A stretch of DNA of 64,000 nt from Nannocystis pusilla (GTDB lineage Bacteria > Myxococcota_A > Polyangia > Nannocystales > Nannocystaceae), in contig NZ_JAIRAU010000002.1 in the NCBI RefSeq assembly GCF_020073745.1, positions 81,694 through 145,693 of the forward strand, given 5' to 3'. Below are positions 7,850-11,090 of this stretch, piece by piece. A model generated the notes under the pieces. That model had not been told where the DNA came from. It saw nothing but the letters and a program-made list of their open reading frames with translations, and did no database searches. The translations under genes were made by a program, and so were the position numbers. Every line of letters starts with the position of its first letter. Within the stretch, counting starts at the first letter, position 1.

Positions 7850-10732
7850 ATGGTTGCGGACCTCGCCGATGCGATCCTCCCCCGGCCCGCGCGCCCCGGT
7901 GCGCCCTTGACCCGCGCTGCACCCTCCGGCGCTCGCAACTGGGCCCTGCTGTGGCTGGCCCTCGGCCTCGGCGCCGCGGCGGCGCTGCATCGCTTCGGTC
8001 CCGACGTTCCTGTCCTTTTGTTCACCCTGCCCGAGTGGCTGGCGGCCAGGCTGTCGGAGGCCGGCGACCGCACGCTGGTGCTGGCGCGCCCGAGCGTGCT
8101 GTGGCTCATGCCGGTCGCGCTGCTGCCGTTCCTCGTCGCGGTCGCGCGCCGCTCGCTGGTCGACCTGCCGGCCTGGCAGGTGGCGCTGCAGCTCGGCGCG
8201 CGCGTGCTGCTGCTGCTGGCGCTGGCGCTGGCGCTGGCCGCCCCGAGCCTGCAGGCGCCGCGGCGCGGCAAGACGGTGGTGGTGGCGGTCGACGTGTCGG
8301 CCAGCGTCGACGACGGGCAGCTGGCCGCGTTCACGGCGGTCGCCCGCGAGGTCGTGCGCCTGGTCCGCGGCGAGATTGGCGACCGCGACGACCGCACGCG
8401 CCTGCGCCTCGTGACCTACGCGAGCCGGGCGGCCGCGCTGCCCCTGTCCGAAGGGACAGAAGAGGTGCAGCTGTCCCGAGAGCCAGGCGGCGGGCTGGCC
8501 AGCGATCACGCCGGGGCGCTGCGGCTGGCCGAGGCGCTGCTCGACCCCGACACCGAGGGCCGGGTGGTGCTGGTCAGCGACGGGGCCGCCAGCGTGGCCG
8601 AGCGCACCGACCTGATCGCGGCGGCCGAGGGCCTGCGCCGGCGCGGGATCACGCTGCACACCCGCACCGCCGCGCCGGCGGCCCGCGGCGACGTGCTGGT
8701 CGCCGGGGTCCACCTGCCAAGCGAGCTTCGGGTCGGGCAGACGTTCGACGCGGCGATCGACGTGTGGGCCTCCGAGCCGCGCACGCTCAAAGTGTTCGTC
8801 GACAAGGACGGGCAGCCGAACGCGCTGTCGCCGAGCGTCGAGGTGGCGCTGCGCGGCGGGCCGCAGCAGATCAAGGTGCCGGTCCGCGCCAACGCGCCGG
8901 GGCCGATCGTGATCGCAGCCCGGCTCGACGCGGCCGAGCTGGCGGCGGCCGACAACCGCAGCCTCGACAACGACCGCGCGGCGGCCGTCGGCGAGGTCCG
9001 CGGGCGGCCGCGCGTGCTGCTGGTCGGCGAGGGCGACCCGTCGGGCGCGCTGGCGCGGGCGCTGCGGGCCGACCACCTGCAGGTCGACGCCGAGGCGGCG
9101 TCGGCGATCCCGGGCGCGGCCGAGGGGCTTCAGCCATACGACCTGGTGATCCTGTCCGACGTGCCGTCGCGCCACGTGTCGGGGGCGCAGCAGCAGGCGA
9201 TAGCGAAGTGGGTCCAGGACGGCGGCGGCTTCGTGATGATCGGGGGCGAGAGCGCGTTCGGGGTCGGCGGCTGGGGTGGCAGCGTGATCGAGGACGTGCT
9301 GCCGGTCCGCTTCGAGGGCGAGCGCCAGCGCGAGCAGCCGACGCTGGCGCTGGTGCTGGTGATCGACAAGAGCGGGTCGATGTCGAGCGAGGACCGCCTC
9401 GACCTGGTCAAAGAGGCAGCTCGCTCGACGGCCTCGACGCTCGACCCGGGCGACGAGATCGGGGTGATCGCGTTCGACTCGCGCCCGGTCACGCTGGTGC
9501 GCCTGCAGCCGGCCGCCAACCGGATCCGGATCGCCGGCGACATCCGCCGGCTCAGCGCCGGCGGCGGGACGAACGCGCTGCCGGCCCTGCGCGAGGCGTA
9601 CATGCAGCTCGCGGGCAGCAAGGCGCTGGTCAAGCACGTGATCCTGCTGTCCGACGGGCAGTCGCCGGAGACCGGGGTGTCGGCGCTGATCACCGACATG
9701 CGCGACGCCGACATCACGGTGTCGGCCGTCGGCGTCGGCGCGGGCGCGGGCAAGGACTTCCTCGCCCGCGTCGCCGAGCGCGGGCGCGGCCGCTACTACT
9801 TCAGCCAGGACGGCACCGACGTGCCGCGGATCTTCTCCCGCGAGACGCGCGAGGTGACCCGCAACGCGGTGGTCGAGCGCGACCTGTTCGCGCGCGTGGC
9901 CAAGAGCGCCCAGGTGCTGCGCGGGATCGACTTCGAGCGCGCGCCGGGGCTCGGCGGCGTGATCCCGCTGAAGACCAAGCCGCTGGCCGAGCTGCTGCTG
10001 CGCACGCACGTCGGCGACCCGCTGCTGGTCCGCGGCCGCCGCGGGCTCGGCCGCACGGTCGCGTTCGCGTCCGACGCCAAGCCGCGCTGGGCCCACCGCT
10101 GGATCGCCTGGGAGGGCTTCCCCAAGTTCTGGTCGCAGGTGGCCCGCGACGTGATGCGCCAGGGCGCCGCGTCGCTCGGTGGCGCGTCGCTGCGGATCAC
10201 GCCCGGGGCCGACGAGGGCAGCTTCCGCGCGGTCGTCGACCTCGACGCCAGCGCCGGCTTCGTCAGCGACCTGCGCGGCGAGCTGCAGGTGATCGACCCG
10301 TCCCTTCCTCCCGGCTCCGAAGGACATACGACGACGCTGACGACCCAGCTGACGGCGCCGGGCCGCTACGAGGCGACGGTGATCGGGGTGCGCGCGGGCC
10401 AGCGGCTGATCAAGGCGCAGCTGTTCGACGACGGCCAGACGCCGCCGCGGCTGGTGGCCGAGGCGACCGGCCAGGCGAGCGTCCCGTACCCGGCCGAGCT
10501 GGCGCCCGACCAACTCGGCGTCGATCCGGCCTGGCTGGCGACGCTCTCGCCCGAAGGCACGCACGCGGGGCCGATCGACGCGGTGGTGACGAGCCCCGGC
10601 GCGCCGCAAGGGACGCGCCAGCGCCCGGTCTGGCCCGAGGTGCTGTGGGCGCTGGCGCTGCCGCTGTTGATCCTCGACCTGCTGCTGCGCCGCGTGGCGT
10701 TCGGCCGGGCGCGCCGCGGCGAGATCGGGTGA
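7850..10732 (+). CDS. membrane-anchored double-VWA protein with class-I glutamine-amidotransferase-like domain (BatA/BatB-like)
   Basis: N-terminal TM helices; two VWA MIDAS signatures (VVVAVDVSASVDD and LVLVIDKSGSMSS); central DUF1355/ThuA-like block (DLVILSDVP...GGGFVMIGG). Confidence 0.75.
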   Translation: MVADLADAILPRPARPGAPLTRAAPSGARNWALLWLALGLGAAAALHRFGPDVPVLLFTLPEWLAARLSEAGDRTLVLARPSVLWLMPVALLPFLVAVARRSLVDLPAWQVALQLGARVLLLLALALALAAPSLQAPRRGKTVVVAVDVSASVDDGQLAAFTAVAREVVRLVRGEIGDRDDRTRLRLVTYASRAAALPLSEGTEEVQLSREPGGGLASDHAGALRLAEALLDPDTEGRVVLVSDGAASVAERTDLIAAAEGLRRRGITLHTRTAAPAARGDVLVAGVHLPSELRVGQTFDAAIDVWASEPRTLKVFVDKDGQPNALSPSVEVALRGGPQQIKVPVRANAPGPIVIAARLDAAELAAADNRSLDNDRAAAVGEVRGRPRVLLVGEGDPSGALARALRADHLQVDAEAASAIPGAAEGLQPYDLVILSDVPSRHVSGAQQQAIAKWVQDGGGFVMIGGESAFGVGGWGGSVIEDVLPVRFEGERQREQPTLALVLVIDKSGSMSSEDRLDLVKEAARSTASTLDPGDEIGVIAFDSRPVTLVRLQPAANRIRIAGDIRRLSAGGGTNALPALREAYMQLAGSKALVKHVILLSDGQSPETGVSALITDMRDADITVSAVGVGAGAGKDFLARVAERGRGRYYFSQDGTDVPRIFSRETREVTRNAVVERDLFARVAKSAQVLRGIDFERAPGLGGVIPLKTKPLAELLLRTHVGDPLLVRGRRGLGRTVAFASDAKPRWAHRWIAWEGFPKFWSQVARDVMRQGAASLGGASLRITPGADEGSFRAVVDLDASAGFVSDLRGELQVIDPSLPPGSEGHTTTLTTQLTAPGRYEATVIGVRAGQRLIKAQLFDDGQTPPRLVAEATGQASVPYPAELAPDQLGVDPAWLATLSPEGTHAGPIDAVVTSPGAPQGTRQRPVWPEVLWALALPLLILDLLLRRVAFGRARRGEIG
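8445..8485. repeat. two TGTCC-N4-GGACA-type palindromes inside the VWA gene, in frame (PLSEGTEEVQLSREP)
   Basis: CTGTCCGAAGGGACAG and CTGTCCCGAGAGCCA. Confidence 0.5.
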
Positions 10733-11090
10733 GGCGCGGCCGGCATGGGGTGAGCCGGGCTCGACGGAACATGTCGCAAGGGACAGGTGGTCATAAAACA
10801 CTCGGCCGGCGCGCCGCGCGAGCCAAGGTGAGGCGCGGCCGGCATGGCGGGTGAGGCGGGCTCGACGGAACATGTCGCAAGGGACATGTGAGGCGCGGGC
10901 AGTAGAGGGCCCGGAGCTGGGCGAGGTGGAATGTCGCAAGGGACAGCTGGTCGGAGGGTGTTCGGCCGGCGCGCCGCGCAAGACAGGCTGAGCCGCGGAC
11001 CGCAGATGAGGCCGAAGGAGAGTGTCACAAGGGACATGCCGTCATGGACATGTTTTATAGAACATGTGCTGGAGGACATGTTCATGGGGG
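10728..11090. repeat. repeat-rich intergenic region: roughly 100-bp tandem duplication, each unit carrying ACATGTCGCAAGGGACA, followed by a GGACATGTT/AACATGT array
   Basis: GTGAGGCGCGGCCGGCATGG...GGGCTCGACGGAACATGTCGCAAGGGACA(G/T)GTG occurs at 10728-10790 and 10828-10890. Further copies at 10930-10950, 11021-11040 and 11041-11088. Confidence 0.8.

Follow-up and report, generated by a model that had tools for sequence, protein, structure and literature searches.

This study concerns the spacer that follows a VWA/GATase1-like gene in a 64,000-nt stretch of the Nannocystis pusilla genome (contig NZ_JAIRAU010000002.1, positions 81,694 to 145,693; hereafter the window), where most of the DNA between this gene and the first of two glycine-rich genes consists of repeats. 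Positions 10701-11093 are a local tandem amplification of a segment of about 100 bp, present in four copies that have decayed to differing degrees. The amplified segment is made up of the last 32 nt of the VWA gene with its stop codon, and the palindromic hairpin that lies just downstream. The account that we favor, and consider likely, is that the end of the VWA gene was duplicated in tandem together with a 3'-end hairpin resembling the repetitive extragenic palindromic (REP) sequences of other bacteria and belonging to a Nannocystis-specific family, giving rise to a fast-evolving spacer.

Repeat finding and a MAFFT alignment of the units define four head-to-tail units of approximately 75-100 bp at 10701-11045, designated A to D. 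Tandem Repeats Finder reports a period of 101 bp at 10701-10890, with 1.9 copies, 89% matches and a score of 306. In the unit alignment A and B are 88% identical, with C and D degraded, and an ATGTC-N6-GACAT palindrome terminates each of the four. The features of the array are as follows.

10730-10732, + strand: stop codon (TGA) at the 3' end of the VWA/GATase1-like gene (open reading frame, Pfam, homology with the annotation of Nannocystis sp. SCPEA4)
10701-10732, + strand: last 32 nt of the VWA gene with its stop codon, also the first 32 nt of unit A
10701-10801, + strand: unit A, 101 bp, comprising the VWA 3' end, a spacer, the palindrome and an AT-rich tail (Tandem Repeats Finder period, alignment)
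10802-10889, + strand: unit B, 88 bp (Tandem Repeats Finder, repeat search, alignment)
10888-10961, + strand: unit C, 74 bp, decayed, with ~27 nt missing from its start (repeat search, alignment)
10962-11045, + strand: unit D, 84 bp, in which the VWA 3' end recurs at the start (TCGGCCGGCGCGCCGCG...CTGAG; repeat search, alignment)
10769-10790: unit A palindrome, ACATGTCGCAAGGGACAGGT, 37 nt past the VWA stop codon; weak hairpin, -8.4 kcal/mol
10870-10891: unit B palindrome, ACATGTCGCAAGGGACATGT, with a 7-bp stem and a 6-nt loop; hairpin of -13.1 kcal/mol, z -2.5
10929-10948: unit C degenerate palindrome, GAATGTCGCAAGGGACAGCT; stable hairpin not predicted
11020-11039: unit D degenerate palindrome, GAGTGTCACAAGGGACATGC
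11022-11093, + strand: five palindrome-core units phased at 14 bp

The opening of unit A, TCGGCCGGGCGCGCCGCGGCGAGATCGGGTGAG, is formed by the last codons and the stop codon of the VWA gene. Units B and D open with diverged copies of the same 3' end in which TGAG is retained, and unit C has lost this part. The VWA gene itself is intact in the first copy; the later copies are orphan fragments of its end. Because the units carry the gene's own 3' end, the array represents a local tandem duplication and not an inserted element. A 37-nt composite pattern of the unit, with 25 specified positions chosen to fit units A and B of both this strain and its sister strain SCPEA4, matched twice in the window against 0.00 expected.

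The first-pass annotation of this DNA had described an intergenic region of about 500 bp built from tandem units of about 100 bp. Tandem units do build the spacer, as Tandem Repeats Finder, the repeat search and the alignment agree, and there are four of them. The strings said to be shared between units are all present: GTGAGGCGCGGCCGGCATGG at 10729-10748 and 10828-10847, GGGCTCGACGGAACATGTCGCAAGGGACA(G/T)GTG at 10757-10790 and 10858-10891, and the further copies AATGTCGCAAGGGACAGCTGG from 10930 and AGTGTCACAAGGGACATGCC from 11021. The estimated length also holds, with a spacer of 501 bp (10733-11233), but the repeat begins at 10701 and so takes in the last 32 nt of the VWA coding sequence, and the description fails for the last ~140 bp (11094-11233), which are unique and conserved. 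Likewise, the terminal array of GGACATGTTTTATAGAACATGTGCTGGAGGACATGTTC is present at 11046-11083, although the full array is longer, taking in the five 14-bp-phased units at 11022-11093.

On the + strand this 14-bp array forms a single long hairpin at about 11037-11090. Folding of 11015-11100 as RNA gave -32.4 kcal/mol (z -5.6) for the + strand and -17.4 for the - strand, a preference also seen in SCPEA4 and in the 90% relative described below; since the + strand is G-rich here, we give this bias limited weight. The CATGT cores of the array are kept in SCPEA4, and the spacers between them differ. A further 14-bp tandem array (4.5 copies of the variant unit GGACCTGCCTGATG) lies at 2187-2249, between a LolA-like and an MMPL gene; its period equals that of the palindrome arrays and its core differs.

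Comparison with relatives indicates how quickly the spacer changes. The VWA/GATase1-like protein of the window is 98% identical to its SCPEA4 counterpart, and the four-unit layout recurs at the orthologous site of SCPEA4. Across 10701-11100, however, identity to SCPEA4 falls to 55-78% with indels, compared with ~97% in the flanking genes. Identity between a unit and its SCPEA4 ortholog is 81% for A, 73% for B and 80% for C, against 88% between A and B. That the A and B paralogs are closer than the orthologs fits conversion between copies or rapid turnover. More distantly, the spacer is 314 bp long in the 90% relative, where the repeats are different and one good palindrome doublet is present; the 84% relative has a 217-bp spacer with a single weak element, and the 82% relative a 45-bp spacer without either the glycine-rich gene or the element. 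These differences imply that the amplification is young and confined to the lineage of the window and SCPEA4, where, as in a variable-number tandem repeat (VNTR) locus, head-to-tail copies differ between close strains.

In the model we propose, the ~100-bp segment (VWA 3' end and hairpin) would have been tandemly amplified by slippage or unequal recombination, and conversion would keep the units similar within a genome. The four units are followed by a short palindrome expansion with a 14-bp period. The palindromes may then act as single-stranded RNA or DNA structures, serving as bidirectional terminators, insulators or protectors of mRNA 3' ends, and the stacked hairpins would keep transcription of the VWA gene apart from the probable promoter of the glycine-rich gene itself in 11094-11233. 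The outcome would be a fast-evolving, VNTR-like spacer that is neither a mobile unit nor an operator array.

A palindrome family at gene ends in Nannocystis

The palindrome held by each unit recurs across the window, as the first-pass annotation had claimed. Searching for ATGTCC-N4-GGACAT at a minimum of 10 of 12 matching positions returned 50 sites where 1.2 were expected, often as 14-bp-phased runs, and a 15-mer core with up to 3 mismatches returned 23 matches, again against 1.2 expected. The family consensus is (R)GGACATGTCC-N4-GGACATGTCC(Y), and 25 of the 36 palindrome clusters in the window are intergenic. We also searched one genome per species for 185,579 species. The exact 24-mer doublet GGACATGTCC-N4-GGACATGTCC occurred in 103 stretches, 100 of which come from Nannocystis, one Nannocystaceae metagenome-assembled genome (MAG) or one Myxococcales MAG, the other 3 being scattered singletons. 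Within Nannocystis it is carried by exedens, pusilla, punicea, bainbridge, radixulma, RBIL2 and MAGs. The palindrome family is therefore Nannocystis-specific and high-copy.

The position of the palindromes relative to genes is uneven. Gene positions in the fetched Nannocystis loci were assigned with a simple gene caller based on third-codon-position G+C (GC3). Among 86 perfect copies, 49 lay in convergent and 37 in co-directional spacers and none in divergent ones, compared with 88 divergent spacers out of 431 in the background, and the median distance to the facing stop codon was 28 nt. Near-perfect copies (at least 18 of 20 matches) gave the same picture, with 78 convergent, 55 co-directional and 0 divergent (n = 133); the co-directional sites were a median of 35 nt from the upstream stop versus 299 nt to the downstream start. 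Each intergenic palindrome cluster of the window likewise faces the 3' end of a gene, and the five divergent spacers of the window are free of clusters. A cluster occurs roughly every 2-4 kb.

Tandem amplification of palindromes with their flanks is not limited to the VWA spacer. Tandem Repeats Finder identified repeats carrying the palindrome at other Nannocystis loci, several of them beginning inside the upstream gene (24-78 nt). An N. pusilla locus (L025) has two such arrays: one has a 151-bp period and 3.3 copies and begins 78 nt ahead of the stop, the other has a 125-bp period and 1.9 copies and begins 24 nt ahead of it. A second locus (L005) has 77 bp x 2.2 copies from 24 nt before the stop; palindrome-carrying clusters that include flanks were also found at L071, L077 and L086.

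Several other palindromes of the window deserve mention in their own right. An extended element, CATGGCGA(A/G)AAGGACATGTCC, occurs at 38462-38568, 20367-20410 and 52011-52040; in the first of these it is present twice, at 38490 and 38539, at a distance of 49 bp. The convergent spacer at 17160-17300 is filled by about 5-9 phased palindrome units; in SCPEA4 the equivalent position is occupied by a 1.77-kb insert carrying AraC-family and HXXEE genes but lacking palindromes, and a search for palindrome arrays flanking this SCPEA4 indel found none. Finally, CTGTCCC(T/C)(G/C)GGGACAG is present three times at 39-bp spacing at 58207-58300, inside the large gene 56862-59954, and is probably a coding repeat with a chance likeness to the palindrome.

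Pairing, position and possible functions

The 10+4+10 doublet is a perfect hairpin, and covariation in the flanks lengthens its stem. At the first flank pair we counted 28 GC and 22 AT combinations against 6 GT and 5 AC, and the flank covariation score was 0.138 compared with 0.087 +/- 0.007 for shuffled data, with none of 500 shuffles scoring as high. This covariation shows that pairing itself is maintained, something that a dimer binding the duplex would not need. Local hairpin energies range from -8 to -32 kcal/mol. The family accordingly has the hallmarks of a REP-like element: a hairpin with maintained pairing that is extragenic, high-copy and lineage-specific, and that occurs in tandem clusters with its flanks.

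It is plausible from their position that the palindromes function as bidirectional terminators, insulators or mRNA-protecting hairpins. Measured against intrinsic terminators, they share the location past stops and between convergent genes and lack the combination of G+C-rich hairpin and U-tract. Ordinary rho-independent terminators have no common conserved stem sequence. The Nannocystis palindromes resemble bidirectional terminators of this class in lying tens of nucleotides past the stop, in being favored between convergent genes and in having A-tract and T-tract flanks at ~25% of sites. They differ in having one conserved stem sequence and in that most family members, including those at this locus, have no U-tract. 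An insulating or terminating effect of the array on the downstream glycine-rich gene is possible.

The spacer between the two glycine-rich genes (12083-12621) bears on the role of the palindrome. It is hypervariable: over 12040-12342 identity to SCPEA4 is 44-72%, and SCPEA4 carries an additional copy of the repeat. The segment 12040-12102, which includes the last 43 nt of the first glycine-rich gene with its stop, is repeated at 12129-12191 with 90% identity, and degraded copies of ...GTGAGCGCGGCG occur at 12221, 12253 and 12312. The ACATGT palindrome is absent from all these gene-3'-end copies.

A number of results weigh against the explanation that we favor, or against parts of it. The copies in the second spacer suggest that the palindrome may not be the cause of the duplications; gene-end duplication at this locus is not strictly dependent on it, and an explanation by a hot spot or by unequal crossing-over keeps some weight. 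Within the array, the palindromes of units A, C and D are weak hairpins. Across the family, sense and antisense folding of co-directional sites is equal (-18.43 vs -18.47 kcal/mol), so the + strand bias of the local array cannot be generalized, and G.U pairs exceed A.C mismatches only weakly (143 vs 109); together these two results make action at the RNA level inseparable from action at the DNA level. Nor does the family show a bias toward downstream T-tracts, with at least 3 T at 14 of 55 co-directional sites, equal to the upstream A count. A3/T3 flanks on both sides are found in only about a quarter of sites, and a scan of 10500-12700 contained no consensus terminator. It is their position that suggests a role in termination or stabilization. 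Lastly, the absence of further copies of the unit, detailed below, covers the window, the sampled loci and the genomes of other species and not the source genome.

Alternative explanations for the array

One alternative refines the local duplication model more than it opposes it. The doublet could be a mobile REPIN (a REP doublet forming a hairpin), spread by a REP-associated tyrosine transposase (RAYT), and the locus a tandem REPIN cluster. Palindromes that are extragenic, lineage-specific and high-copy, with 10-mer doublets in hairpin form, are what such a system would produce, and its tandem clusters also take in flanks. In Pseudomonas fluorescens SBW25, 16 ordered REPIN clusters have been described in which REPINs are tandemly repeated together with their flanks; the largest has four REPINs (Bertels & Rainey 2011, PMC3116915). 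The likeness to the VWA spacer extends from the short, lineage-specific extragenic hairpin palindrome in very many copies to tandem units of palindrome plus flanks, four at this spacer as in the largest SBW25 cluster. There are also differences. The Nannocystis core is the symmetric 10-mer GGACATGTCC at a 14-bp period, whereas SBW25 REPINs comprise two ~20-nt REPs 71-110 bp apart; the flank duplicated along with it at the VWA spacer comes from the end of the gene before it; and the Nannocystis palindrome has not been linked to a RAYT. A tblastn search with E. coli RayT of ~950 kb of sampled Nannocystis DNA gave no credible match, the single weak hit (L041, E = 0.48) being a spurious frame inside another gene, and the genes bracketed by palindromes are ordinary genes. 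Moreover, the arrays at 1453, 3939, 4624 and 5896 are orthologously placed in SCPEA4 with 90-98% identity, and so give no sign of recent movement. A RAYT link of the palindrome family is putative, and we hold this reading as a tentative one that is rather unlikely to be correct.

The family can also be compared with other known repeats. Enterobacterial REPs and the bacterial interspersed mosaic elements (BIMEs) built from them are hairpins that occur in clusters in 3' untranslated regions and in convergent or co-directional spacers, with reported roles in mRNA 3'-end stabilization and transcription attenuation. In E. coli the REP palindrome is imperfect and carries a conserved 5' GTAG, and successive copies within a BIME point in alternating directions. 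The Nannocystis palindromes share with them the position at gene ends and between convergent genes, the hairpins and the clustering, but the sequences are unrelated, and the Nannocystis units are self-symmetric and 14-bp phased. Neisseria DNA uptake sequences (DUS) are asymmetric and common inside genes, and their inverted pairs occur in terminators. The Nannocystis motif is similarly a genus-specific, strongly over-represented 10-mer, often in an inverted-pair hairpin just past genes, but it is symmetric and mostly intergenic. We know of no link between the motif and competence in Nannocystis. A more speculative proposal, to which we attach a low probability, is that the GGACATGTCC palindrome at its 14-bp phase belongs to an undescribed Nannocystis-wide system with its own non-RAYT protein partner, which would mark gene 3' ends and actively seed the amplification of gene ends into hypervariable arrays.

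It is also conceivable that the repeats are scars of recombination at a hot spot for gene turnover, left by repeated indels or unequal crossing-over of the downstream genes, with the palindrome a passenger. The variable gene content downstream of the VWA gene among relatives, the hypervariability of both spacers around the glycine-rich genes and the palindrome-free 3'-end copies of the second spacer would all be expected on this basis. Yet the units are contiguous head-to-tail and no intervening gene sequence can be traced between them, the 88% likeness of A and B suggests recent duplication or conversion, and the pattern of gene end plus palindrome in tandem recurs at unrelated loci of other species. 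We consider scars an improbable explanation of the array.

The first-pass annotation had raised the possibility of a regulatory array for the glycine-rich genes, which is unlikely given that the family is tied to gene 3' ends (28-35 nt from stops) and absent from divergent spacers. In its most specific form, the palindromes would be operators that bind a dimeric helix-turn-helix regulator, for example of the PadR type, with stacked copies controlling the glycine-rich genes. The canonical PadR operator is ATGT-N8-10-ACAT (PMC3506622), and the core ATGTCC-N4-GGACAT fits ATGT-N8-ACAT exactly, so that half-site letters and spacing are identical (PMC3506622). The conservation of the CATGT cores of the 14-bp array between strains, amid variable spacers, points the same way, as does the finding that in four lineages the start of the glycine-rich gene is preceded, at 100-160 nt, by a palindrome. 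Operators of the PadR type, however, are located in the promoter regions of a limited regulon, usually beside the regulator gene, and the Nannocystis sites are distributed differently. At roughly one cluster every 2-4 kb they are far too numerous for a regulon; they are enriched between convergent genes and just past stops, with 0 sites in divergent promoter spacers; pairing is maintained in their outer flanks, for which a dimer binding the duplex has no need; and no PadR-like gene is annotated adjoining the locus. An operator array is thus very doubtful.

The weakest reading, likewise raised in the first-pass annotation, is a miniature inverted-repeat transposable element (MITE) or composite mobile element, that is, a non-autonomous unit of ~100 bp inserted repeatedly here and elsewhere. 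In its favor are the compactness of the unit, its repetition, the inverted repeat within it and the genome-wide dispersal of the palindrome core. We nevertheless reject it as extremely unlikely: no terminal inverted repeats or target-site duplications are present at the unit ends (TCGGCCGG... and ...AAAACAC), the 5' part is copied from the 3' end of the adjacent VWA gene, the position is orthologous in SCPEA4, and additional copies of the unit were found neither in the window, where the composite pattern matches just units A and B, nor in the 185,579 species genomes (0 matches), nor by blastn of each unit against the window and ~950 kb of other Nannocystis DNA, where matches elsewhere were solely to the ~20-nt palindrome core.

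The glycine-rich genes and the meaning of the array

Downstream of the array, the window (G+C 72.8%) contains the following features.

11094-11233, + strand: unique conserved segment of ~140 bp outside the repeat, 87-95% identical to SCPEA4
11234-12082, + strand: first glycine-rich gene, with an ALK_LTK_GRD domain (open reading frame, Pfam, SCPEA4 annotation)
~12622-13671: second glycine-rich gene, ALK_LTK_GRD (homology with SCPEA4 annotation)

The conserved segment, whose block GACGTGACGGGCAGCACGG is also retained in the 90% relative, probably contains the promoter and leader of the first glycine-rich gene. The scan of 10500-12700 found no sigma-70 promoter consensus. On visual inspection the conserved GGCAGCACG-N8-TTGCA block that precedes the gene does not qualify as a sigma-54 promoter either, its -24 GG being wrongly spaced. 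No Rfam family reached its gathering threshold anywhere in the window. An exact-sequence look-up of the glycine-rich protein among protein records gave no entry.

The glycine-rich domain of the two tandem bacterial genes (11234-12082 and 12622-13671), ALK/LTK PF12810, is chiefly familiar from animal receptor kinases. Approximately 100 nt upstream of the second gene, at 12490-12526, lies a single palindrome, GAGGATGTCTTTTGGACATGTGCGAAGGGACATCCTC, which is 96% conserved in SCPEA4 amid the hypervariable spacer. Gene content 3' of the VWA gene also varies, from two glycine-rich genes in the window and SCPEA4 to one (L002), none (L110) or a leucine-rich repeat gene (L004), and the region downstream of the VWA gene (10733-13671) is a gene-turnover spot. 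Elsewhere in the window, long-period tandem repeats inside genes occur at 39832-40084 and 54671-55441 (105 bp x 2.4; 102 bp x 3.9 and x 1.8).

The local duplication model provides a corrected annotation for a puzzling 500-bp spacer, in which a gene end and its 3'-end hairpin have been duplicated in place. It calls for no new mechanism, as equivalent tandem REP clusters are known in Pseudomonas and the VWA array is such an object in a different phylum. Literature searches returned nothing relevant on palindromic or REP repeats in Nannocystis or Myxococcus, and the motif itself returned p53 papers only; this is apparently the first documentation, within the literature searched, of a genus-specific REP-like palindrome in Nannocystis. 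Looking forward, the fast-evolving tandem clusters could serve in strain typing, and the palindrome could mark the ends of transcription units in the 11-13-Mb genomes of this genus.

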